Below are positions 1 to 10,134 of a stretch of DNA of 10,134 nucleotides, piece after piece. Numbering within the stretch: position 1 is the first letter of the stretch; each line of letters starts with the position of its first letter. The DNA comes from a virus, in the UHGV virus genome UHGV-1424210, one strand, 5' to 3'. The position numbers and the translations under genes were made by a program. The notes beneath the pieces are model-generated. The model saw only the letters and a list, made by a program, of their open reading frames with translations. It did not search any database and had not been told where the DNA came from.

Positions 1-96
1 AGATTCGCGCCATGTGCTTTTGCCCTTGAGCAATTCCTTAAAGAGTACAGGGAAACGCGCCCATTGCAGGTATGGCAACGAACTGAACCAGACTGA
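1..96 (+). CDS. Possible 3' end of a gene entering from the left edge (partial, 31 codons, stop TGA 94-96)
   Basis: Frame 1 is open from the window edge to TGA at 94-96 (…RFAPCAFALEQFLKEYRETRPLQVWQRTEPD). A plus-strand intrinsic terminator lies about 65 bp downstream. No recognisable motif. Confidence 0.25.
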   Translation, partial: RFAPCAFALEQFLKEYRETRPLQVWQRTEPD

Positions 97-160
97 TTGC
101 ATTGCCCACCAGCCTGATAGCGGCTATCATCCCCGTGCTTATGTTTAGTGTTTTCCCATT

Positions 161-189
161 GGCGACCGCCCCCGGTCGCCTTTGTTTTA
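161..189 (+). terminator. Rho-independent terminator, plus-strand orientation
   Basis: Perfect 8-bp GC-rich stem GGCGACCG (161-168) / CGGTCGCC (173-180) with loop CCCC, followed by TTTGTTTTA (181-189). On the minus strand the hairpin is not followed by a U-tract. Confidence 0.5.
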
Positions 190-207
190 TGTGTCATATG
201 CTCCCCT

Positions 208-417
208 TTACACTGCCTTACCTGAATTAATGCGATCCCGGCTTTTAACCCATTCCATAACCTCGGACAGCAGCCACCCTACAGAACGACCGCCCAGATT
301 AAGACGTGACGGAAAGCTCCCTTTTTTCTCCAGTTCGTAGCGTGTAGTGCGACACACTCCAGTTAACTTACGACATTCATCCTCACGGATTACGCGATCT
401 TCATTTATTTCACGCAT
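208..417 (-). CDS. alpA: AlpA-family (prophage CP4-57 regulatory protein / excisionase-like) helix-turn-helix regulator, about 69 aa
   Basis: Translation MREINEDRVIREDECRKLTGVCRTTRYELEKKGSFPSRLNLGGRSVGWLLSEVMEWV fits the AlpA/Xis-like HTH pattern. Start set at the ATG at 417-415. The ORF-track start at 504 is a GTG directly abutting AAGAGG, with no usable spacing, and would add 29 non-conserved residues. Confidence 0.75.
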   Translation of the reverse strand: MREINEDRVIREDECRKLTGVCRTTRYELEKKGSFPSRLNLGGRSVGWLLSEVMEWVKSRDRINSGKAV

Positions 418-758
418 ACAAAAACCTACATAAAAATTACGTATATAAACTTTTCTCTTAGCTGTAGATATATGAGATCGGATATTACTTAGATTCTTTT
501 TCACCTCTTAAATTAAAAACACAACCATGCTAAAGGCTTTGTTCGCTAAGGTTCGTAGAAGCTCGTTAGTGTTTAAAATCGTGTCACGAGTTTTTAAGCG
601 ACGCAACAAAAAATGTCGTCATTTGGCATGACACCTTAATTACCTCATTAAAAACAAATAGATAAACCATCAGGTGTTGGAACAATCAAGAAACAGAGAA
701 TAAGAACTCAGAAGAAGACATTTCAATTTTTTTCGATAGTTGACACATATAAAGAGAA

Positions 759-784
759 GATATTTGCAGATATTCCCCGATATT
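759..784. promoter_or_regulatory. Three GATATT hexamers at exact 10-bp phasing (759, 769, 779) in the AT-rich int-alpA spacer
   Basis: gatatttgca gatattcccc gatattctaa; helical phasing suggests a protein-binding array. It lies upstream of alpA and just downstream of the int stop. Confidence 0.35.
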
Positions 785-798
785 CTAAGATCTATTCA

Positions 799-830
799 CG
801 GCTGTAATCTCTTAAAGAAAAAACAGCCGT
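799..830. other. Inverted repeat ACGGCTGT (799-806) / ACAGCCGT (823-830) immediately downstream of the int stop
   Basis: Perfect 8-bp inverted repeat separated by 16 bp of A/T-rich sequence. Not a canonical terminator because no U-tract follows on the minus strand. Confidence 0.3.
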
Positions 831-836
831 AATTTG

Positions 837-2075
837 TCAAGAATTTTGGGGGTAAATTCGCGGGGTCATAACAACGATTTTTTCATCATTGTTCTGGAGA
901 AGCTCGAGACGGTCTACCCATAGATTAAGAGCATCACGTTTTGCATCAAGGTAGCGGGAGTGGTTATAGACTCGTTGCATCCCTGGCATCTGGTGGGCTG
1001 TAAGCTGCTCGACAATATGCGGATCCACGCCTAAATCGTTCAGCATGGTTGTAAATGTGTGCCGGATATCGTGTAACGTCCAGGGGGCTTGATTAATTCG
1101 TCTGTGCGCTGTTCTTCCGTACTCTGCTACCGAAGATTGTCCTTTCAGTTCACCAAGCAATAAGCCTGTGTGTCTGTTCTGCTCCACCAGTTGCGTGACG
1201 AACGGCAAAATGCTTTCCGGTATTGGCCTGAATATGGCGACCTTCGTTTTGCTGTGCTCCTTCGGTACTGTCCAGAGCATTTCTTTAAAATCCCACTCCT
1301 GCACCTCAGAGCGCCTTAGCTCAGTGGTACGGCATCCAAAAACAATCAGGAGGCGAATTAGGGCGCTGTAGTATGGCGGGAATATTTTGTCATCCAGGGC
1401 GCGGAGTAATTCCCCAAGCTCCTTATTTGTTAGTACGCGCTCGCTCACTTCTGCTTTTTTTCCCACATCACCGACAACCATATCATCAAGAACGTTGCTG
1501 ATTGCGTATCGTCGTTTTCGGCAGTACTTAAGCGCCTGTTTGCATACCTGTAGCAAAAATCCGGCAGATACAGGGCTTCGCTTTGCCATCTGGTCAAAAC
1601 ATGCCAACCAGTGCCGTAGCTCGCATTTTTCCAACGGCAAAGCGCCAATCTGGCTGATTATGTGTTTATTGATCCGGCTTTTCAGTGATTCGTAGTCAGT
1701 GCGCTTTTCCTTTGCATACGATTCAAGCCAGTAAGTGAGCGCTTCCTTAACTGTCACGGGGGCTAACGCATCCTGTACAGCACGATTAAGCTCATAGCGC
1801 GGATTTTTCCCCTCAGCCAGCCAGGCGCGACACTGTGCTGCTTTTTCCCTGGCTGCTTTCAGGCTCAGATCGGGATAATTGCCCAGTCTCAGACGTTCCG
1901 GTGATACCTGCCTACCAGTTCCGGCCCTGTAAGTGAAATACCAGGTTAACAGGCCGCTGGTGGAATGTCTTACGCTAAGATTGCCACCGTCATTAAAAAA
2001 GGCGTTTTTTGTGGTTGGTGATCCGCTTAATTTTCGTAAAAGAGTGTCGCTAAGTCTATGAATTGCGCTGCTCAT
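837..2075 (-). CDS. int: Site-specific tyrosine recombinase (P4-type integrase), 412 aa
   Basis: Full-length ORF starting with ATG at 2075-2073. C-terminal catalytic-domain signatures: conserved Arg in LIVFGCRTTELRR, His-x-x-Arg box WTLHDIRHTFTT, and a C-terminal Tyr region QRVYNHSRYLD. Overall resemblance to P4/CP4-57-type integrases. Confidence 0.9.
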   Translation of the reverse strand: MSSAIHRLSDTLLRKLSGSPTTKNAFFNDGGNLSVRHSTSGLLTWYFTYRAGTGRQVSPERLRLGNYPDLSLKAAREKAAQCRAWLAEGKNPRYELNRAVQDALAPVTVKEALTYWLESYAKEKRTDYESLKSRINKHIISQIGALPLEKCELRHWLACFDQMAKRSPVSAGFLLQVCKQALKYCRKRRYAISNVLDDMVVGDVGKKAEVSERVLTNKELGELLRALDDKIFPPYYSALIRLLIVFGCRTTELRRSEVQEWDFKEMLWTVPKEHSKTKVAIFRPIPESILPFVTQLVEQNRHTGLLLGELKGQSSVAEYGRTAHRRINQAPWTLHDIRHTFTTMLNDLGVDPHIVEQLTAHQMPGMQRVYNHSRYLDAKRDALNLWVDRLELLQNNDEKIVVMTPRIYPQNS

Positions 2076-2098
2076 GTTTAGCGTTTCCGGTCATCAAA

Positions 2099-2355
2099 AT
2101 TAACTACACCATTGACTACACCGTGCATCGTACAAGGGCAAACCGTGACGAACAAGAGCGAACAAGGAAAACAAAATTTTCCTTTATAATCATAGCGATG
2201 AATGCACACAAAACACTACCACGAACACCCGCGAACACTAGATGATAAATAACTATCATTTATATCATTTAGTTAATTAGTCTTTATTTTTCATTATGTT
2301 GCAAATAACAAGCCCGTCAAAAACAGTGATATTAACTACACCATTAACTACACCG
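2099..2355. repeat. Pair of 25-bp direct repeats, ATTAACTACACCATT(G/A)ACTACACCG, at 2099-2123 and 2331-2355
   Basis: The two copies differ at one position and are 232 bp apart. Each is itself a tandem duplication of ATT(A/G)ACTACACC. They flank the putative int promoter. Confidence 0.7.
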
Positions 2356-2386
2356 CTTCACGAACAATATCGAACAACCGCGAACA
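2149..2386. repeat. Seven CGAACA hexamers in helically phased (10-bp) groups upstream of int
   Basis: CGAACA at 2149 and 2159; at 2222 and 2232; and at 2361, 2371 and 2381, with exact 10-bp spacing within each group. Candidate integrase arm-type or AlpA/RDF binding sites. Confidence 0.6.
2293..2320 (-). promoter_or_regulatory. Candidate sigma70 promoter directed toward int
   Basis: On the minus strand: -35 TTGACG (reverse complement of 2315-2320), 16-bp spacer, -10 CATAAT (reverse complement of 2293-2298). Predicted leader of about 210 nt to the int ATG at 2075. Lies between the repeat groups. Confidence 0.35.
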
Positions 2387-2642
2387 AAGATCAACACGCT
2401 TTAATCATTATCATTTTCCGGCTATCCGTCATGAAGCTGGTGGATGATCTGCGTGGTGATTTCCACCATTCAGAGCAGGGGCGGTCATCATGACCATGCC
2501 ATAACAAAAACCCCATATTCGTGGTTTTTCTGTGTCGGGGCTATTCTGCTGTTGCCGTGCTGGTGGATATTCTCCGGTATGCGGCTCCCCATATCGGCAT
2601 CAGGCCCACCAGCGTGAAGCGTTTTTCATTTTTCGCGGGTAT

Positions 2643-2702
2643 AAAAAATCGATGGGGCGGGCAGTCCTGAAGACGTCAGGGTACAGAGATTTGACCCGCC
2701 CC
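2643..2702 (-). terminator. Intrinsic terminator (minus strand): compound GC stem followed by U6
   Basis: GGGGCGGG (2654-2661) pairs with CCCGCCCC (2695-2702), enclosing an inner hairpin CCTGA-agacg-TCAGG (2666-2680). On the minus-strand RNA this is followed by AUCGAUUUUUUAU (plus-strand A-run 2643-2648). Confidence 0.5.
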
Positions 2703-2716
2703 TCCCTGTGCATGAG

Positions 2717-2752
2717 CACAATAAGTAACCGAAGGCGGAATTCCGCCCTCGG
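2717..2752 (-). terminator. Intrinsic terminator (minus strand): 10-bp stem around GGCGGAATTCCGCC plus U-rich tail
   Basis: Minus-strand RNA CCGAGGGCGG-AAUU-CCGCCUUCGG (one G-U pair) followed by UUACUUAUUGUG. First terminator reached after the packaging operon. Confidence 0.5.
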
Positions 2753-2784
2753 TACTTACATATGAGAAACGATATTTCTTCCAC

Positions 2785-2925
2785 CGATACCCTTTATTTG
2801 GGTATCGCGAGTAAGCCCCAAAATCTGGGTGTTACTCTTACTACCCAAACTACGGGTAGTTTCCGTAGTTTCATGGTCGAGTTGCAAATCTGCAACTCAC
2901 CCACCAGCCAACGCAATTTTGCGTT
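2785..2925. other. Cluster of four hairpins / inverted repeats in the untranslated region downstream of the packaging genes
   Basis: H1 CGATACCC-tttattt-GGGTATCG (2785-2807); H2 alternative stems ACTACCC/GGGTAGT (2840-2860) or AAACTACGG/CCGTAGTTT (2847-2871); H3 GAGTTGC-aaatct-GCAACTC (2879-2898); H4 AACGCA-attt-TGCGTT (2910-2925). Confidence 0.45.
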
Positions 2926-2943
2926 ATCGGGAATATCAGCAAG

Positions 2944-3324
2944 TTACCGCCGCAGTCGTTCCGGCTTCTTCCACTGGTAAGTACTTTTCGCGCTCTCCCT
3001 CCGTTGTTGAGAACGGCGACGGTATGCCAGCAACTCAAGGACTCTGGTTCGTATGTTGCGCATATCCACGCCGTTAAGCTCAATACCATCACGGCGCATC
3101 ACCTCAGCAACAACACGCGCGTAATTTTCGGCTATCACGCTGTCCGGCTGCGTGGCCTCCTGTTCGCCAGCCTGCTGGCTGATTCCGGTAATACTGCGGA
3201 TTATCCCGAGCGCTTCGGTCTCGGTCATGGTCATGGTCATGGCCTCCATAGTGATGGCGGGTCCTCCTTGTGGGGTGCCCTGCCACGGGGCGGGAGCATC
3301 GCGGAAAAAGGCTAGTTTTTGCAT
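2944..3324 (-). CDS. Hypothetical protein downstream of terS (126 aa from ATG 3324; more likely about 101 aa from ATG 3249)
   Basis: Same strand as the operon. A strong SD, AAGGAGGA, lies 13 nt upstream of the internal ATG at 3249; the ATG at 3324 has no SD. Contains an in-frame (ATGACC)3 repeat encoding MTMTMT. No recognisable family. Confidence 0.45.
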   Translation of the reverse strand: MQKLAFFRDAPAPWQGTPQGGPAITMEAMTMTMTETEALGIIRSITGISQQAGEQEATQPDSVIAENYARVVAEVMRRDGIELNGVDMRNIRTRVLELLAYRRRSQQRRESAKSTYQWKKPERLRR

Positions 3325-3485
3325 TTTTATTCGTCATCACCACCAATGCAATATATTGATATGACTTGATGTTTTATTTTTCGGTGTCGATTTCGATTGT
3401 TTTTTGTTCATCACTGACGCATAACGCCCACCAGCGCAACGCTGAAAGCCAGTCAGTAAACTGGCTTCGGTCATTGTGCACTACG

Positions 3486-4028
3486 TTACTTGTCTTTATC
3501 CGGCTGAAACTTATCAGGCACATTTCCGGTAGTTTCCATCAGATAATCGGACAGCATTCGCGGGATGTTTTCATCAAGTTTTGTGCATGCGTTACAGGCT
3601 CTGACAACTTCTTTTTTCAGGCCATCCAGCATGACGGGGGTCATCTGTGGGAAGCTCCTTTGCATAGTAAGCGGGAGGCTGTCCATGATTGATGAAATCT
3701 GACTCGCCAGTTTTGAAAGCGCGTACATGCAAAACTCTGTATCAATCACGTCACCGCGATCGCGCTCGTTTTTAAGTTCCTGCGCCTCCGCCTGTGCTGT
3801 CAGTAATCTGATCCTGACTCGTAAGAGTTCATCATCATCAATCTCGCCTTTGTCGTTTGTAAGCTGGCTAATTGCATTGTTAACCCTATTGTCTATCACG
3901 CTGGCAACATCATAAAACGCCTCACGGCCTTTACGTTCAACGGGAGTCACTCCCCACTTGTCGAATGCTGTAGCACTTACCCGGCAGCTTTGCGCCATGG
4001 TTTTTTTGTTCATCAGGTGCGATTTCAT
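3486..4028 (-). CDS. Terminase small subunit, lambda Nu1-like
   Basis: Full-length collinear similarity to lambda Nu1 as recalled: RLLTAQAEAQELKNERDRGDVIDTEFCMYALSKLASQISSIMDSLPLTMQRSFP… versus lambda RLTRAQADAQELKNARDSAEVVETAFCTFVLSRIAGEIASILDGLPLSVQRRFP…; C-terminus ENIPRMLSDYLMETTG versus ELIPGLLSEYIEQSG. The ORF-track start at 4031 is TTG; ATG candidates are 4028 and 4013 (MNKK…, matching lambda MEVNKK…). Confidence 0.85.
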   Translation of the reverse strand: MKSHLMNKKTMAQSCRVSATAFDKWGVTPVERKGREAFYDVASVIDNRVNNAISQLTNDKGEIDDDELLRVRIRLLTAQAEAQELKNERDRGDVIDTEFCMYALSKLASQISSIMDSLPLTMQRSFPQMTPVMLDGLKKEVVRACNACTKLDENIPRMLSDYLMETTGNVPDKFQPDKDK

Positions 4029-4129
4029 CAATATCCCAACTTGGTCAAGGTTTCAGGTTGGTGTGTTGGTGTTATCTTTCCCTTTTTATTCATGGAGATA
4101 GAGCAAACAACAAAACCACCACCACCACC

Positions 4130-4215
4130 CTGAAAAAGCTCATAAATAGCGAAAAACCGCAAGGTCGCCGCCCCGTAGCCTACCGGATCGCCGGAAAGGA
4201 CCCGCCAGCCAGAAC
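4130..4215 (-). other. Lambda-type cos site (cosQ/cosN-like); cosN cohesive-end sequence at 4162-4173
   Basis: Minus strand reads GGGCGGCGACCT at 4173-4162, identical to the lambda 12-nt cohesive end as recalled. Both flanks also resemble lambda: CGGGTCCTTTCCGGCGATCCGGTAGGCTACG upstream and TGCGGTTTTTCGCTATTTATGA downstream. About 135 bp upstream of the terS start, as in lambda. Confidence 0.8.
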
Positions 4216-4229
4216 GGGACCTAATTTCA

Positions 4230-4613
4230 TCAACCAATCAACTTATAGCGACCATCCCGTGCATTGCGACGTACACGCTCAATCTTGAGGCATAGCGCCG
4301 CATCTGGCTTTTTTGGGACAGGTACGCGGCAATATTCAGAAGCTCGAGGAATATTGTTTATCCAGTCGATCACTTCACTTAAATACCAGGCCTTACGCCC
4401 TTCCGTAACCTGTACGCGCTCGGGGAACTCTCCGCGAGCCTCAAGGTTTAGCAATGTGCGACGGCTAAGGGTAGTAAGTTCCATCACCTGATTCATATCA
4501 ACAAGGCGTTCACTTAAACGCATTTTGTCAGCAATAGCCTTTAATTCCTCTACTGCTGGATCCGGATACATCATTTCGGCAATTGGCTTAAGGTCATTGT
4601 AATGATTCTGCAT
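4230..4613 (-). CDS. AlpA-family HTH protein with an approximately 45-aa N-terminal extension (127 aa)
   Basis: C-terminal part VMELTTLSRRTLLNLEARGEFPERVQVTEGRKAWYLSEVIDWI matches the AlpA/excisionase-like HTH pattern. ATG at 4613 is preceded by SD AAGGGGGA at 5-nt spacing. Sits between the D-like gene and cos. Confidence 0.75.
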   Translation of the reverse strand: MQNHYNDLKPIAEMMYPDPAVEELKAIADKMRLSERLVDMNQVMELTTLSRRTLLNLEARGEFPERVQVTEGRKAWYLSEVIDWINNIPRASEYCRVPVPKKPDAALCLKIERVRRNARDGRYKLIG

Positions 4614-4624
4614 TGTATCCCCCT

Positions 4625-4966
4625 TTACACACGAGCCAGCGGCTGAACAGAAATACCTGAGCCAACAAACGCGGCAACCTTTGCCGACAGTTCTTTTACA
4701 GACTCAGGCCAGTTCAGAGCATCAACATTTAAAACACCTGTCTTATAAACCTGTGCCTGTGTTTTTTTCGCTGTGTCGATTTGTACAGCGGAAACATAAA
4801 CCGCTTTGCCTGCGCTCGTTCCATCCCATACCACTAGCGCACCAGTTGCATCTTCCTGCATCAGTGGCGTAAACGCAGGTATTACCCCTTTATTGGCTGA
4901 AAATATCCCCAGCGTAGTAACCAGTGCTTCAGTGCCAGACATGAGTTCAGTGTAATGAGTAGCCAT
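4625..4966 (-). CDS. Head decoration protein, lambda gpD-like (113 aa)
   Basis: Similar length to lambda D (110 aa), with shared motifs THY, TPLM, WDGT, KTG, WPE and a C-terminal AF-G-x-IS. SD AAGGGGGAG upstream of the ATG at 4966. Starts 10 bp after the capsid gene stop. Confidence 0.8.
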   Translation of the reverse strand: MATHYTELMSGTEALVTTLGIFSANKGVIPAFTPLMQEDATGALVVWDGTSAGKAVYVSAVQIDTAKKTQAQVYKTGVLNVDALNWPESVKELSAKVAAFVGSGISVQPLARV

Positions 4967-4975
4967 TGCTCCCCC

Positions 4976-6022
4976 TTAGCCAATGCGAACGGTAACAAAA
5001 CGATTGATGCGGGCCGGTATTGGCTGTGGTGCTGAATGTGTCTGCACATATTCAATAGCCGGATCACCAGGCACAATATAGTTTTTCGGTGCAAGTTCGG
5101 CTTTAGTCAGCCCCATCCGGATTAGCTCCGGATCCTGAATACCGCCATAAGCGACAATCCCCTGAAGAGCCGTATTGCCAAGCACCATCAAATCAGGATC
5201 AAGGAAATATTTTTCAGTTCCGTCCTCGTCGGTATAACGCCCGCTGTAAACAACAATCGCAACATCGCCCATATACCCTTTAAAACTCACCGAATCACCA
5301 AGGTCTTTAAGGGCCGTTTCCAGTTCGGAATTAGAACCACGACGAGTATCCAGAGCCTCTTTTATCGCCCTGAATGAACGGTATTTCTTCCATACATTAC
5401 CGCCCATAATGATAATATTAGTGACGCCCTCACTAAATTCTGCGTAGCTCTCAATATCATCATTTGGATCAAAAGCTTCTTTATCCTTACCTGACCACTC
5501 AGCACCGCCAGACTGAGTGATGATATTTTGTGGTTTAATATTCCAGTCCAGCTCATAACGTTCAATACCATCGCCCTCAATGATATTTTTCCCCGTTGTG
5601 ATTGCCTGAACGGCAAGCCATTCAATACGTGCACGAATAGCTTTAGCCTGATTTACAATCGCCTGTTTAACTTTAATATTACGCGCTCCAAAAGCATTGT
5701 ATTGCTCAGGTGATACACCAGCAGGGCGCACAGCTAACTTATTTGGATCAATGCTGCTTTTCGGTTTCATATAGCCAGGGCGAATTGTTTTTGATTCGTA
5801 TCCCTCATCTCGTGAAACTTTACTGCCCACCATAGGAGAGCAAAACGCCGCGATCGGGATATTTGGATCGTCGATCGTATCAAGAATAATGTCTCTCGAT
5901 TCAAACATTACCGAGCGAGTGAAAAACAAACTGGTAAACAACGCATTTAATTTTTTTTGCACATCTTCAGCATTAGCCACCTGCACAAGCTGTGTAGGCG
6001 AATATAAGTCAACCATACTCAT
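4976..6022 (-). CDS. Major capsid protein, lambda gpE-like (about 348 aa)
   Basis: Collinear similarity to lambda gpE as recalled, e.g. NIITQSGGAEWSGKDKEAFDPNDDIESYA and ALDTRRGSNSELETALKDLGDSVSFKGYMGDVAIVVYSGRY versus lambda NITQSGGTEWSKRDKSTYDPTDDIEAYA and KLDTRRGSNSELETAVKDLGKAVSYKGMYGDVAIVVYSGQY. Start set by homology at MSMVDLY (ATG 6022); the alternative ATG at 6016 has better SD spacing. The ORF-track start at 6103 is TTG. Confidence 0.9.
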   Translation of the reverse strand: MSMVDLYSPTQLVQVANAEDVQKKLNALFTSLFFTRSVMFESRDIILDTIDDPNIPIAAFCSPMVGSKVSRDEGYESKTIRPGYMKPKSSIDPNKLAVRPAGVSPEQYNAFGARNIKVKQAIVNQAKAIRARIEWLAVQAITTGKNIIEGDGIERYELDWNIKPQNIITQSGGAEWSGKDKEAFDPNDDIESYAEFSEGVTNIIIMGGNVWKKYRSFRAIKEALDTRRGSNSELETALKDLGDSVSFKGYMGDVAIVVYSGRYTDEDGTEKYFLDPDLMVLGNTALQGIVAYGGIQDPELIRMGLTKAELAPKNYIVPGDPAIEYVQTHSAPQPIPARINRFVTVRIG

Positions 6023-6187
6023 CCTCTTTACATTCATTACAAATAATTGTGAATATATTCTATTACCGATGTCTGCTATGCGAATACATGCAACCAAGTG
6101 CAATGTTGTATAAAATATGCTGTGACAACTTCAGTGCTGATAATTCGTGTTAATGTATTTACTTCCTTTGGTCGGGATTTATGTAGC

Positions 6188-6216
6188 ATGCCGGAAAATC
6201 TATTTTTTTCCGGCAT
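6188..6216. other. 11-bp-stem hairpin between the SSB-like and capsid genes (terminator-like)
   Basis: ATGCCGGAAAA (6188-6198) / TTTTCCGGCAT (6206-6216) with a 7-nt loop. A T-rich tract follows on the plus strand only, so its role in the minus-strand operon is uncertain. Confidence 0.35.
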
Positions 6217-6233
6217 CTTTTTGTTTGCAGAAT

Positions 6234-6656
6234 TTAAAACGGTATATTATCGCCGTACGGATCATCATTCCCCGACTGTTGTTTTGCCCTGTTCAGTGCG
6301 TCAGTGGCCTGCCCCTGCTGGCCTTTTTTGCCGCCCGGTCGCGCTGTTCGCGCACTGATCACGCTGTCTGCGATAACCTGCCAGCCCTGCCGCGTTTCGC
6401 CGTTCTGGCCTGTCCACTGGCTTACCTGCATGTTACCCGCCACGCTCACCAGTTCGCCTTTGTGGTGTTTTGCCAGTGCGTCGGCCTGTCTGCCAAACGC
6501 CAGGACGGATAACCACATCATCGCCGTTCCGTCATCTGCCTGGCTGCACGGAAGGGGGACCGCCATACTAGCCATCGCCATTTGTGTACCCTTGCTGGTG
6601 GTCTTTAACTGCGGGTCAGCCACCAGCCGTCCGTAAGCCGCTATCTGTGCTGTCAT
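6234..6656 (-). CDS. Single-stranded DNA-binding protein (SSB)-like, 140 aa
   Basis: OB-fold-like core WLSVLAFGRQADALAKHHKGELVSVAGNMQVSQWTGQNGETRQGWQVIADSV resembles E. coli SSB [51 protein letters not shown]. Gly/Gln-rich linker and acidic C-terminal tip DDPYGDNIPF (compare SSB DFDDDIPF). SD GGAGAG upstream; the start ATG overlaps the upstream stop (ATGA). Confidence 0.65.
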   Translation of the reverse strand: MTAQIAAYGRLVADPQLKTTSKGTQMAMASMAVPLPCSQADDGTAMMWLSVLAFGRQADALAKHHKGELVSVAGNMQVSQWTGQNGETRQGWQVIADSVISARTARPGGKKGQQGQATDALNRAKQQSGNDDPYGDNIPF

Positions 6657-6895
6657 GCTGTCTGCTCTCCGGTTTTAACGTTGATGGTTGTCACCTGTTC
6701 CGCTTCGGCAATCTCCCGTTCTGTCAGCGTGGCAAAGTTTGCAGCTGCCGTTGTCATGAATGCGCTAATCAGTTCGGGATGTGCTTTCGCATATCCTTCC
6801 CCGGCGTTGCGGTCGATGATTTTTATCGCCACTCTCAGCCAGTGCTCTGTAAGGTCAATAGCGCGGTAGTGTGGTTGTTTGCGGTTTTCCTTCAT
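6653..6895 (-). CDS. Hypothetical protein, 80 aa, translationally coupled to the SSB-like gene
   Basis: ATG-initiated ORF whose stop overlaps the SSB-like start (ATGA). First gene after the iteron region. No recognisable motif. Confidence 0.5.
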   Translation of the reverse strand: MKENRKQPHYRAIDLTEHWLRVAIKIIDRNAGEGYAKAHPELISAFMTTAAANFATLTEREIAEAEQVTTINVKTGEQTA

Positions 6896-6935
6896 AGTTC
6901 AGATCTCAATTTTTCGTATATATATACAAAACAGT

Positions 6936-7250
6936 GCGGGTTATGCGGGTTAGCGGGTTATCTTCGCTTGCTAAGTATTTTTTATTCCTTAATATCAATA
7001 CATTACAAAATTAACTGTTTACTGTTTAGCCGTGGCGTAACCCGCAAAATGCTCAAAATAACCCGCAAACGGGGTTTTTTCTGCGGGTTACGCGTGGCTG
7101 TTTGCTGTCACTTCCTGTTATTCATCTGCGGGTTATAATCGCACTTTTGCGGGTTATAACTGCCGTTTTGCGGGTTACGTGCGGGTTATTGATTTCCTTT
7201 TTATTCATGCAGTTAATGCACTTATACACAGAGTAACCCACATAACCCGC
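6936..7250. repeat. Iteron array (9-bp GCGGGTTAY) flanking an AT-rich stretch: candidate replication origin
   Basis: Direct copies at 6936-6944, 6945-6953, 6954-6962, 7083-7091, 7128-7136, 7149-7157, 7170-7178 and 7181-7189. Inverted copies (TAACCCGC) at 7036-7044, 7058-7066 and 7242-7250, plus a degenerate one near 7233-7240. AT-rich region 6962-7030. Immediately downstream of the Rep stop at 7274. Confidence 0.7.
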
Positions 7251-7273
7251 AACTTTTCACCTCACACAGGGGG

Positions 7274-9397
7274 TTAATCTTCTGCCTCAGGCTGGAACAT
7301 CAGCACGTAAAAAACATGCTGCTTCCCCCCAATTTTGCCGAGAGCCTTTTTCTTGTAACGGCGATCGTTACCCGCTTCCAGCATTCCGGCAGCACTCAAC
7401 GCGCGGGCAAAGTGGGACGGGTTAAATCCCTGTGCGATCTCCCCCTCAAACACATGAGGAAACGTGTAAAAACGGAACTCATCATCTTCATTTCTGATAC
7501 TCCCCTTTCTGTATCCGGCAAGGTCTTTAATCGGTAAATCACGTTCATCACTGTTTGGGTAAGGAAGGTATCGACTGAACCCGAACGACGACAAAAACGC
7601 CTCAGCCTGTTCAACCATCTGTTTAAATTCCCTGTTACCCGTGCCGAACTCCTTCACCCAGGCATTAAAGTTATGCTGTATTGCGTCCCGGCATTCCTGC
7701 GCGGCCCAGCCAGTTACATGACCGGAAAGCACAAGCGCGGCCTCCAGTATGGCGAAACGCTCACCCACGCGGTGGACTTGCTCGCCGTAGCTCTCCGGTA
7801 TCAGGTTGCGCCACCGTTCGCGGCATTCCCTTACCGTATCCTTTGCCTCCTGCTGGTGGCCTGCCAGCCATTTAACCCACTCACGACCCGCTGCCCCGTG
7901 ATTTTCTGTCCAGGCATCCTTTAACGCGTCTGCGTGCGCCTTTCCGGTGCTGTATTCGTGAAAGTGCGTGGCTTTTTCCATCGGAACGTTAAGCAGGCGG
8001 ACAAGCTGCCCCGCTTTGACTTTTATCCCCTCCGTTTTGAGGAATGTCTCAACGTCCATTTCTCCGGTGCTGATTGCCACCGTGCGCCAGTGTTTTATCT
8101 CCCGGTTGCCGCCGTCCTTCGCCCCCTGTAATTTCCCGGAACCGTTAAACAACGTATAGGCTGACGTGGACACCTCCCGCGCGTTTCCGGCCTGGCCTAT
8201 TTCATCCAGGGGTAACAGCCCGTCGTTGTGCGCCTCTGCCTCGTTAGCGATACCTAACGCTGTGCCGTACCAGGTCAGCCGTTGTGCGTCCGGCTCTCCC
8301 CATAAACTTGATGCGATGTTCTGCGTGGTGGTTTTCCCTGCCGATGACTGTTCGAAAAGATGTACCCCGAAGCCGTCAGCACCAACAAGGCCAATCAAAG
8401 GTGCTGCCAGTGACGTGGCAACACCCAGCATCATGGACGGATTGCCACCAGCCAGCCGCGCCACGCAGTCGCGCCAGCCCTCCGACGTACCCGCAACCGA
8501 ATAGCCATTAACAGTGGCACTTTTTCCGGTAAACAGGATCGGTTTTTCAGAATCACCAATGATTGAGCCGTCCGGCATGATATACGCGCCAAAATGCCAG
8601 CCCGTTGTTGTGCTTAGCTGCCATTCCTCATGGCTTCCGCTTAACTGCATCCAGTCAGCCAGGATAGCCCTGTATTTGCCGTTTGTTGTCACGTTCAGCC
8701 CGTGATCTTTAAGCAACCGCCAGCCGTCACGGTCGCCAATGCCACCACACGGGATCGCCATTGTGATGACTTCATGGTTTGCTAATTTTTTCCAGCGCAT
8801 CACGCGGTAATGCTCTTTACCGATCGTCCCCGTTCCCAGTAGTTCAAGCGGAGAACATAACCACGTCTCAGGCCGGATAATTTCGCCTGACTGCTTATCC
8901 ACTTTGGGCGTTACCCAGAAAACACCATCGACGCGACTTTCAACGCGGGGCTTTAATTCATCATCCTGATAGCATGGCTCTTTTTTCTTTACAGGCAGTT
9001 CAACTACCTTTTTCTTTTCCGCCTGCTCTGCCCGTTCACGTTCCAGATATTCGCGCCAGTTCTCCCGTTTCTGGCTGTGCATTCCTTCAGGGTAATAATC
9101 AGCATCCCTGACACCTGCCGCTGCCAGTTTCTGCCCGATGGTATTAACAAGCCCCGGACGCAATAACCCCGCCTGGTAGAGACGCACGCGATAGCGTCCG
9201 TCCGGTACGATTTGCAGGTTGTCCAGTTCGGCAAGTTGTTGCTCTCCAAGCCAGACAGGTGGCACGTTATCGCCAGCCAGTCGCCCGTCCTGTTCCTGCC
9301 ACTGCTTCGCATGTGCCCACGCATCACTACCCGCAAAAATGATGACTTCCGTCATTTTGTCACGCGGCTGGTGTTTTAAATTTGGCGCTTTTTTCAT
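7274..9397 (-). CDS. Replication initiator (primase/helicase-like ATPase; resembles DUF927-type proteins of CP4-57/PICI-like islands), about 707 aa
   Basis: Long ORF with P-loop-like motif FEQSSAGKTT and Walker-B-like LLPLDEIG. Adjacent iteron origin. Start set at ATG 9397 (SD GGAGAGAG, ATGA overlap with the upstream ORF stop); the ORF-track start at 9412 is GTG. Family assignment is from memory, not from a search. Confidence 0.8.
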   Translation of the reverse strand: MKKAPNLKHQPRDKMTEVIIFAGSDAWAHAKQWQEQDGRLAGDNVPPVWLGEQQLAELDNLQIVPDGRYRVRLYQAGLLRPGLVNTIGQKLAAAGVRDADYYPEGMHSQKRENWREYLERERAEQAEKKKVVELPVKKKEPCYQDDELKPRVESRVDGVFWVTPKVDKQSGEIIRPETWLCSPLELLGTGTIGKEHYRVMRWKKLANHEVITMAIPCGGIGDRDGWRLLKDHGLNVTTNGKYRAILADWMQLSGSHEEWQLSTTTGWHFGAYIMPDGSIIGDSEKPILFTGKSATVNGYSVAGTSEGWRDCVARLAGGNPSMMLGVATSLAAPLIGLVGADGFGVHLFEQSSAGKTTTQNIASSLWGEPDAQRLTWYGTALGIANEAEAHNDGLLPLDEIGQAGNAREVSTSAYTLFNGSGKLQGAKDGGNREIKHWRTVAISTGEMDVETFLKTEGIKVKAGQLVRLLNVPMEKATHFHEYSTGKAHADALKDAWTENHGAAGREWVKWLAGHQQEAKDTVRECRERWRNLIPESYGEQVHRVGERFAILEAALVLSGHVTGWAAQECRDAIQHNFNAWVKEFGTGNREFKQMVEQAEAFLSSFGFSRYLPYPNSDERDLPIKDLAGYRKGSIRNEDDEFRFYTFPHVFEGEIAQGFNPSHFARALSAAGMLEAGNDRRYKKKALGKIGGKQHVFYVLMFQPEAED

Positions 9398-9693
9398 TTC
9401 TGCTCTCTCCACGCGGCAATCATGTTTTTCAGTTCCTGTAGTTTTTTATCCACATCCACACGTGACACATGGTTATTTCTGGAAGTCGGGATTTCCCGCC
9501 GGAATCTGCAAATAAAGATCTCCACGTTCAGCGAACTAAGAAATGAATAGCCATCACGGATAAAATACACACGGTCAAACATCAGTTCTTTTACCGTTAC
9601 TCTGTTACCGTTCTTATCCAGATAAATAGCGCCGGGGATAATTTGGGGGTGTGCATAACCGCTGGCAGTCAAGCCAGATAAATACGTTCTCAT
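9394..9693 (-). CDS. Hypothetical protein, 99 aa, translationally coupled to rep
   Basis: ATG at 9693 with an upstream GGGGAT; stop overlaps the rep ATG. No recognisable motif. Confidence 0.55.
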   Translation of the reverse strand: MRTYLSGLTASGYAHPQIIPGAIYLDKNGNRVTVKELMFDRVYFIRDGYSFLSSLNVEIFICRFRREIPTSRNNHVSRVDVDKKLQELKNMIAAWREQK

Positions 9694-9699
9694 GATTAT

Positions 9700-10020
9700 T
9701 TATCCCCGATTTGAATCAGTATTCGCTTTCTTTATAGCATTTAATGCATCTGTGGCATTTTCAATGGTGCACCGTAACGAAATATCAAAATGTCCAAGCA
9801 TTGCCAGTAACAAACCGATATTACCCATATCAATGCGCATGGCCTTTTCGTCATAGTCCTCATTTTCTGACGCATGCCACATCAGGCTACCAATTGACGC
9901 AACAGCCATTGATATATTGTCAGTAGCCCCATCCGCAGCGGAATAAACCTTTTTAGCAATATCATGCTCACAGTTAAAATGCGGATTAATCAGGTACTGG
10001 TAATTTGACATATCAGGCAT
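9700..10020 (-). CDS. Hypothetical protein, 106 aa
   Basis: ATG-initiated ORF. Its start overlaps the stop of the upstream partial ORF by 8 nt. Six bp separate its stop from the next start. Confidence 0.55.
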   Translation of the reverse strand: MPDMSNYQYLINPHFNCEHDIAKKVYSAADGATDNISMAVASIGSLMWHASENEDYDEKAMRIDMGNIGLLLAMLGHFDISLRCTIENATDALNAIKKANTDSNRG

Positions 10021-10134
10021 GGCACACCCCCTGACGAATACGGGCAGCGAATACCATCACGCAGCCAGCCGGGGATTGCAGGCGTGCTTCCTGTTCGCTG
10101 GTGGCCTCAATGGTAATCACGCGCGGTTGTGCCG
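10013..10134 (-). CDS. Partial CDS (C-terminal 39 codons) entering from the right edge
   Basis: Open minus-strand frame from the window edge to TGA at 10015-10013 (…VITIEATSEQEARLQSPAGCVMVFAARIRQGVCHA), overlapping the next gene start; indicates an operon of at least four genes. Confidence 0.4.
   Translation of the reverse strand, partial: AQPRVITIEATSEQEARLQSPAGCVMVFAARIRQGVCHA

Follow-up and report, generated by a model that had tools for sequence, protein, structure and literature searches.

To our knowledge, the only packaging hijack that has been worked out for cos-type satellites of Gram-negative bacteria is that of the Rpp proteins, which need the small terminase subunit (TerS) of the helper phage. 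Transfer of EcCICFT073, an Rpp-type phage-inducible chromosomal island (PICI), is abolished when the helper is phage 80 delta-terS, and the Rpps lack the C-terminal region that binds the large terminase subunit (TerL) (PMC9026076). Other islands bring a TerS of their own. In Gram-positive PICIs such as SaPIbov1 and SaPI1, both Staphylococcus aureus pathogenicity islands (SaPIs), the satellite TerS and the helper TerL together select satellite DNA (PMC10530653), and in Escherichia coli the island EcCIIHE3034 was reported in 2018 as 'encoding TerS' (Fillol-Salom et al., ISME J; PMC6092414). SatelliteFinder lists a terS gene 'responsible for redirecting the packaging' as one of five core PICI components, together with an integrase, an AlpA-type regulator, a primase-replicase and a capsid-morphogenesis gene, in conserved order over about 10 kb (PMC10085698). 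Given these reports, this kind of gene was already known; the literature that we searched mentions Nu1-type satellite TerS proteins, and we found in it no experiments on how they work. Here we analyze such a gene, terS, in a 10,134-nt stretch of viral DNA (UHGV virus genome UHGV-1424210, hereafter the window), which carries a PICI of E. coli.

A Nu1-family small terminase gene

The terS reading frame begins at the ATG at 4028, the start also used by homologues in other islands and in RefSeq (a TTG lies one codon further upstream, at 4031), and encodes 180 aa rather than the 181 given in the original prediction, which had been made from the letters of the window alone. That prediction had described the protein as Nu1-like and collinear with lambda Nu1, and homology searches bore this out. 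Pfam PF07471 (Phage_Nu1) matches aa 64-148 (81 bits against a cut-off of 30, E=9.8e-23), PHROG 57 'terminase small subunit' matches aa 1-174 (E=6e-52), and BLASTP aligns the protein to lambda Nu1 (taken from NC_001416) with 37% identity over 179 aa (E=1e-35). Only two differences interrupt the collinearity with Nu1: the satellite protein lacks 13 aa of the linker that follows the DNA-binding domain (DBD), and it extends 14 aa further at the C-terminus. Among the 50,697 phage records that formed our comparison set for phage TerS, the closest protein is N15 gp1 (47.5% identity over 88% of the query). This homology is far beyond chance, and on sequence grounds terS is a genuine Nu1-family TerS gene.

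Conservation is uneven along the protein. Identity to lambda Nu1 is 33% over aa 1-55, 11% in the linker, 57% over aa 74-127 and 33% over aa 128-166; the same four stretches are 55, 28, 54 and 33% identical to N15 gp1, and both the DBD and the short linker are of N15 type. Most of the invariant columns in the alignment of phage and satellite TerS belong to the central domain, and K138, E140, A144, N146, P156 and Y162 of the C-terminal module are nearly invariant across the same proteins. The original prediction had taken the C-terminal part to be the best conserved and the N-terminal DNA-binding part to be more divergent. In these comparisons the central domain is the best conserved, and the last ~40 aligned residues, at 33%, do not fit its view of the C-terminus. 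Its further claim that the best conserved part is the one contacting gpA is half right if that part comprises residues 100-181, as given in PMC6739421, and wrong if it is the C-terminal ~40 residues, a protease-sensitive stretch reported as needed for TerL binding (PMC9026076). By these comparisons, the extreme C-terminus is the least phage-like and most variable part of terS.

The N-terminus is so diverged that a phmmer search of the terS protein against PDB sequences returned no TerS match, and the relation of the DBD was recovered only by a satellite profile and by fold comparison. The profile, built from satellite sequences only, matches lambda TerS residues 1-98 (chain 6hn7_B, E=0.004). 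An AlphaFold2 (AF2) model has a mean predicted local distance difference test score (pLDDT) of 68, with 70-81 over the first 50 residues, and orders the N-terminus as beta strand, helix-turn-helix (HTH), wing and helix (alpha3). Its top Foldseek match is the lambda-like TerS DBD 7lwr_A (target template modeling score 0.73, root-mean-square deviation 1.9 Å, 51 columns, E=0.095). Together, these results give moderate support to a predicted N-terminal winged HTH DBD of the Nu1 type.

terS occupies the rppA slot of a classical PICI

The window matches the genome of E. coli C 237-04 (NZ_CP109921) at 99.9% identity in two pieces, window 1-2263 and 2242-10134, which map to opposite ends of an integrated island and overlap by 22 bp. 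The window is therefore an attP-type permutation of the island, and its junction could derive from a circular molecule, from concatemers or from a tandem array. The integrated island measures 10,724 bp, with clpS on one side, yljB/cspD on the other and a 22-bp att repeat at each end, and includes about 596 bp that are missing from the window. Its genes are ordered int, alpA, icd-like genes, DUF4222, DUF927 primase/helicase, a hypothetical gene, the single-stranded DNA-binding protein gene (SSB), gpE-like, gpD-like, AlpA-like HTH, terS and a 94-aa hypothetical gene (orf94). All five PICI core components are present in the expected order, and judged by its gene content the element is a classical PICI of the EcCICFT073/EcCIIHE3034 group.

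No TerL gene lies beside terS, as the original prediction had stated, and none was found elsewhere in the complete island, in which Pfam, PHROGs and RefSeq annotation likewise revealed no portal, protease, tail or lysis genes. The satellite gene shares with lambda Nu1 and N15 gp1 its three-domain collinear homology, its predicted winged HTH DBD and its position just downstream of cosQ-cosN-cosB. It differs in what follows: instead of an overlapping gpA-type terL, orf94, terminators and att come after terS, which separates the satellite copy from the phage Nu1-type copies. We considered and rejected several other identities for the element. Capsid-forming PICIs (e.g. EcCIEDL933) resemble it in carrying int, alpA, a primase and packaging genes of their own, including a capsid protein and TerS, but they also encode TerL, portal, protease and head-tail connectors, and the absence of TerL, portal, protease and head-tail adaptors in Pfam, PHROG and RefSeq results excludes the element from that class. 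A P4-like satellite was rejected since neither Pfam nor PHROGs gave a match to psu, delta, sid or a P4 alpha-type primase and the capsid genes are of gpE/gpD type, and a decayed prophage was rejected on gene content and selection.

The right arm of EcCICFT073 consists of c1499 (capsid), c1500 (decoration), a hypothetical gene, cos, rppA (c1503) and a homologue of orf94, so that terS sits exactly in the rppA slot. Both genes lie downstream of a lambda-like cosQ/cosN and upstream of orf94, and both presumably serve to redirect lambda-like packaging to the island cos. Their products, however, show no similarity (BLASTP E=1.4; hhalign probability 0.06%), and we accordingly rejected 'Rpp-like protein' as a family assignment. 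RppA and RppC are 139-154 aa long, have no TerL-binding end and need the helper TerS, whereas the satellite TerS has 180 aa with full Nu1-type central and C-terminal regions. The original prediction of a route different from binding the helper TerS is in keeping with this lack of sequence relationship despite the common slot, but the route is not newly seen: TerS-encoding E. coli PICIs were reported in 2018 (PMC6092414) and the SaPI precedent is long established (PMC10530653). The SaPI TerS proteins belong to another protein family and serve headful (pac) packaging, in contrast to this cos-type satellite with its lambda cosN, in which no Ppi-like partner was identified.

EcCIIHE3034 is the closer counterpart. 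It occupies the same site next to clpS, has the same order of primase, SSB, gpE-like, gpD-like, cos, terS and orf94, and carries a nearly identical cos and a TerS that is 87% identical overall. It differs in the gene upstream of cos, in the decoration gene, in the replicase and in the last ~50 codons of terS, as described below.

The cos region upstream of terS

The lambda cohesive-end sequence has a single zero-mismatch match in the window, 133 bp upstream of the terS start codon (the ATG stands at +146 from the first cosN base), and aligns with cosN of lambda, EcCICFT073, EcCIIHE3034 and CFT073 phage 4. The cosQ-like segment next to it can be aligned to the lambda and N15 right ends as well as to the cos sites of other PICIs, GGGTCCTTTCCG being invariant. 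At +46 to +70 from cosN, the cosB-equivalent region reads (GGT)5 TTTTGTTGTTTG. In the Enterobacter-type PICI, with 69% identity in the DBD, GGTAGGTGGTGGTGTTGTTATTT stands equally far from cosN in a cosB that is otherwise unrelated. The mapped R3 site of N15, whose DBD is the most similar among phages, is GAGGTTGTTGTTT at bp 48-60 (PMC9026076). Because the motif recurs at the same distance in the Enterobacter-type island and resembles N15 R3, we propose this (GGT)n-type motif (candidate sequence in cosB: GGTTTTGTTGTTT) as the putative TerS binding site. cosB also contains an inverted repeat that is kept in EcCIIHE3034.

A triplet run is also present in the EcCICFT073 cos, where the complementary sequence CACCACCACCAC (locus L003, ~2545-2565) lies at a similar distance from cosN as the (GGT)5 run at window 4105-4128. 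Window-type and EcCICFT073-type islands carry the same triplet tract in opposite orientation.

Natural exchange of terminase modules

The comparison with EcCIIHE3034 divides terS into two parts. Codons 1-127 are 97.4% identical at the nucleotide level (about 97% also in the protein comparison), with a rate of synonymous substitution (dS) of 0.08, whereas codons 128-180 are 71.7% identical with dS 1.08; the ratio of nonsynonymous to synonymous rates (dN/dS) is ~0.2 in both. The last ~50 codons, with their high dS and low dN/dS, thus form an old module that is exchanged independently of the rest and remains under selection. In the block that runs from cosN across cosB into terS as far as codon 127, the two islands are 85-97% identical (85% in the cosB region), against 36% for the gene upstream and 59% for the decoration gene.

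A second exchange joins the window-type protein to one of phage-21 type. In P0099 and P0104 (194 aa), a phage-21-type N-terminal half is joined to a window-type C-terminal half. P0099 is encoded at L008 8001-8585 (related loci: L009-L011); its PICI occupies the phoQ site and carries another replicase (AAA_25) as well as a PerC gene. We had considered that P0099 might be a prophage gene beside a TerL; this was rejected, as it sits in another PICI, which has no TerL. The L008 island has a phage-21-type cosB with R3/R2/R1-like CATGTCG sites together with the 21-type DBD, and is 100% identical to the window at the nucleotide level from about terS codon 80 to beyond the stop codon, which places the recombination breakpoint at the start of the central domain, near window 3790. 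This swap indicates that DBD type and cosB type travel together as a cassette, a covariation that would be expected if the island TerS reads the island cosB. The natural chimera resembles the lambda/21 TerS chimera made in the laboratory, from which the TerS domains were defined, and lambda/21 chimeras placed TerL specificity in the C-terminal half (PMC9026076).

The replication modules of similar islands also vary, between a DUF927 primase/helicase, a 'DNA primase family protein' and AAA_25 (window 7274-9397 vs L004 1-521 and L008 2922-4328), and the mosaicism of the packaging arm follows a pattern of its own. In the Enterobacter-type genomes (L012-L014, ~8559-16513), FRG and DUF3892 genes come after the related PICI (TerS P0109), and after them a lambda-like prophage. 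This prophage, which directly adjoins the satellite and lacks the terminase-to-capsid left arm, opens with a truncated gpE gene, after which come FI, FII, Z, U, V, G, T and H.

How the satellite terminase may redirect packaging

We consider it likely that the satellite supplies a complete specificity subunit, which binds the island's own cosB and recruits the gpA-type TerL of a helper to cut the lambda-type cosN. A lambda-like helper would induce the island, which would excise, as the attP junction in the window suggests, and replicate with its own primase/helicase and SSB. The packaging operon (capsid protein, decoration protein, regulator, cos, terS and orf94) would then be transcribed. TerS would bind the island's cosB through its N15-type winged-helix domain, with (GGT)n-TTGTTGTTT at +46 to +69 from cosN as the candidate site, and would oligomerize through the central domain, while the C-terminal module would recruit the helper's gpA-type large terminase. 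This enzyme would nick the lambda-identical cosN and package island DNA from cos to cos. The island would in effect supply the specificity subunit and steal the enzyme, and the helper TerS should not be needed. The original prediction had likewise proposed a satellite using its own TerS to redirect a helper TerL to its own cos. The satellite context, the cos just upstream of terS, the absence of TerL and the linkage of DBD to cosB agree with this; the interaction with lambda gpA that it had in mind is far from assured.

Several observations weigh against the reading of an autonomous specificity subunit. The extreme C-terminus, the putative TerL-binding end, is 28-33% identical to those of lambda, N15 and 21; its best match in the phage records is PhiR5_1 at 49%, with lambda at 36%, and no phage TerS was found there with a C-terminus close enough to the satellite's to point to a helper. 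With so poor a match, it is doubtful that the protein interacts with lambda gpA in particular. In the 21-type chimera the C-terminus is still of satellite type rather than of 21 type, which is unexpected if this module must copy the TerS of the helper, and neither observation ties the C-terminus to a particular TerL. The part that is best conserved with phage TerS is instead the oligomerization domain (57% to lambda), which would also allow mixed oligomers with the helper TerS. The satellite cosB is distinct from that of lambda, and the integration host factor (IHF) consensus (WATCAANNNNTTR, at least 8 of 9 positions) was not found between cosN and terS. The cosB inverted repeat is absent from the Enterobacter-type island, the most distant relative, for which reason we do not rely on it. 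Finally, EcCIIHE3034 barely transferred after induction of its resident prophages (<1 to 40 transductants per ml; PMC6092414).

In the main rival reading, the satellite TerS acts as Rpp does, only as a hetero-oligomer with the helper TerS through the central domain, poisoning recognition of the phage cosB and retargeting the complex to the island cos, with TerL brought mainly by the C-terminus of the helper TerS. The shared slot in EcCICFT073, the conservation of the central domain, a C-terminal module that resembles no known phage TerS and the proposal that Rpp evolved from TerS (PMC6739421) are all compatible with such a mode. Yet the satellite keeps a full-length C-terminal module, under purifying selection and with residues common to phage TerS, whereas the Rpps lack this region (PMC9026076). 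terS and RppA share no sequence similarity, and the TerS DBD and helix alpha3, which Rpp contacts, correspond to a part of the satellite TerS that has diverged or been deleted. We regard an Rpp-like mode as unlikely on balance. That the protein serves interference only, as a defence-like decoy that titrates the helper TerL or disturbs the helper terminase while the island is not efficiently packaged through it, appears quite improbable to us. EcCIIHE3034 and the island in strain 18098 show almost no transfer, and interference with the helper is common among the PICI genes of this region (PMC6739421), but low transfer may simply reflect the lack of the right helper. A functional-looking cosQ-cosN-cosB kept adjoining terS and exchanged with the matching DBD makes sense only with island DNA as the substrate.

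We think it very improbable that terS is an inert remnant of a decayed lambda/N15-like prophage with no current function. The gene is phage-derived, has no partner terL and bears no more than the name 'terminase small subunit' in RefSeq, but the frame is intact in hundreds of genomes with dN/dS ~0.2, and the frequent frameshifts or neutral evolution expected of a remnant are not seen. It also lies within a PICI architecture with intact attP, int, alpA and replication module, and a relative in an IMG/VR contig shows an attP-type junction. The retention and joint exchange of cos with the matching DBD, and purifying selection on the gene, are what make both the interference and the remnant explanations the less likely ones.

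A broader scheme can be offered tentatively, and we hold it with rather less confidence than the specificity-subunit reading itself. TerS-type PICIs may package independently of the helper TerS by means of a naturally recombining TerS of three modules: a cosB plus DBD cassette of N15-like or 21-like type, an assembly core that is conserved, and a C-terminal adaptor that is specific to satellites and can be swapped. The adaptor would decide which helper TerL, and with it which phages, the island can use. Under this scheme the full-length TerS would be ancestral, and Rpp would have arisen by loss of the adaptor.

Other features of the element

Coordinates are collected in Table 1. The original prediction had described the gene after terS as an unknown ORF of 101-126 aa. 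The gene is real and its function is unassigned; its product has 94 aa if translation starts with the ATG at 3228, or as many as 126 aa with the one at 3324. EcCICFT073 ends in a homologue of 71% identity, and neither Pfam nor NCBIfam gave a match to orf94. The two terminators predicted after it were recovered as strong terminator-like hairpins at 2721-2759 and 2654-2702, the second stem being followed by a U6 run. NCBIfam likewise contains no model matching TerS, the AlpA-like protein or the capsid protein, and Rfam (at the gathering threshold) and ARAGORN found nothing in the window.

Table 1. Features of the satellite element in the window (coordinates refer to the 10,134-nt stretch).
Feature	Position	Strand	Description or evidence
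terS	3486..4028 (stop codon included)	-	180-aa Nu1-family small terminase
Predicted winged helix-turn-helix DNA-binding domain, N15-like type	terS codons 1-55, 3864..4028	-	Identity, AF2, Foldseek, profile
Central (oligomerization-type) domain, best conserved with phage TerS	terS codons 74-127, 3648..3809	-	Identity, invariant columns
C-terminal module, putative TerL-binding end	terS codons 128-180, 3489..3647	-	Swapped separately between islands
cosN, exact lambda 12-nt cohesive-end sequence GGGCGGCGACCT	4162..4173	-	Zero-mismatch match
cosQ-like segment and left flank of cosN (GGGTCCTTTCCGGCGATCCGGTAGGCTACG)	4174..4203	-	Alignment
cosB-equivalent region between cosN and terS start	4029..4161	-	Alignments; unlike lambda beyond ~+40
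Candidate TerS binding site (R3-like), (GGT)5 then TTTTGTTGTTT	4105..4128	-	+46 to +69 from cosN
Inverted repeat inside cosB, TTTCAGGGTGGTG / CACCAACCTGAAA, 13 nt, arms 59 nt apart	4051..4135		Kept in EcCIIHE3034
att core, 22 bp, attP configuration	2242..2263		Overlap of two mapped pieces
Tyrosine integrase	837..2075	-	Pfam Phage_integrase and Arm-DNA-bind_3; RefSeq
AlpA-family regulator adjoining int	208..504	-	Pfam PF05930, E=4e-16
Two terminator-like hairpins closing the packaging operon	2643..2759	-	RNA fold -58.5 kcal/mol, z=-5.9
orf94, conserved satellite gene, last of operon	2944..3228	-	PHROG 1561 (unknown function), E=2e-50
Second AlpA-like HTH protein, directly upstream of cos	4230..4613	-	PF05930, E=1.4e-8; PHROG 2790, E=2e-48
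Lambda gpD-like head decoration protein	4625..4966	-	Pfam PF02924, E=2e-15
Lambda gpE-like major capsid protein	4976..6016	-	PF03864, E=6e-41; PHROG 29, E=4e-91; start as in RefSeq
SSB	6234..6656	-	Pfam PF00436, E=2e-15
DUF927 primase/helicase (replication module)	7274..9397	-	PF06048, E=4e-47; PHROG 1139, E=6e-180

The gpE-like and gpD-like genes (4625-6016) are present without a portal, protease or scaffold gene. Their products may, for example, redirect capsid size; in EcCICFT073, deletion of the homologues c1499 and c1500 did not relieve interference with lambda (PMC6092414). By our estimate, four copies of the island (42.9 kb) would fill a head of lambda size (genome 48.5 kb); alternatively, single copies may enter small capsids formed with the gpE-like and gpD-like proteins. 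The 127-aa AlpA-like gene upstream of cos is common to the Enterobacter-type islands, and EcCICFT073 and EcCIIHE3034 have an unrelated 137-aa gene at this place.

Direct repeats flank the att core at 2099-2155 and 2331-2387. This 57-nt repeat (ATTAACTACACCATT(G/A)ACTACACC...) is accompanied by several CGAACA(N4)CGAACA repeats (window 2099-2390), and the attP-flanking repeats are probably integrase arm sites. Near attP, a block of ~320 nt (window 2300-2620) is almost identical in EcCIIHE3034 amid unrelated sequence; it has no RefSeq-annotated gene and no Rfam match, and an ORF on its plus strand (2444-2617) would encode 57 aa that include a hydrophobic stretch. A relative with 97-99% identity, and thus not the source of the window, was found in the IMG/VR contig L016 (IMGVR_UViG_3300019373_000108; 10,780 nt), which starts with a joined attP-type junction (1-122) and ends with an att-clpS chromosomal junction (10586-10780). 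The sample apparently held excised (or tandem) as well as integrated forms. Its replication module differs from that of the window between window positions 6850 and 8977.

Prevalence and significance

Of 5,426 complete E. coli genomes, 907 contain the terS plus cos segment, 761 of them at a coverage of 80% or more, and the terS product in these genomes is almost always 180 aa long. rppA was found in 97 of the 5,426, a count that covers the RppA allele only and excludes other Rpp alleles, so that on this basis the terS type is ~8 times more frequent than rppA (761-907 vs 97). Its substitution pattern indicates that terS is maintained under purifying selection.

As far as homology and gene context can tell, terS is a recognized kind of packaging-hijack gene in a common E. 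coli phage satellite, and our result is incremental within a known framework. It would represent an alternative to the Rpp hijack, in which the island brings a complete TerS. Most useful are the candidate cosB motif and the natural module swaps: the chimeras are ready-made swaps for asking which part of TerS reads cosB and which chooses the large terminase, and so the helper range, both of them questions that Murialdo and Feiss raised for PICIs.

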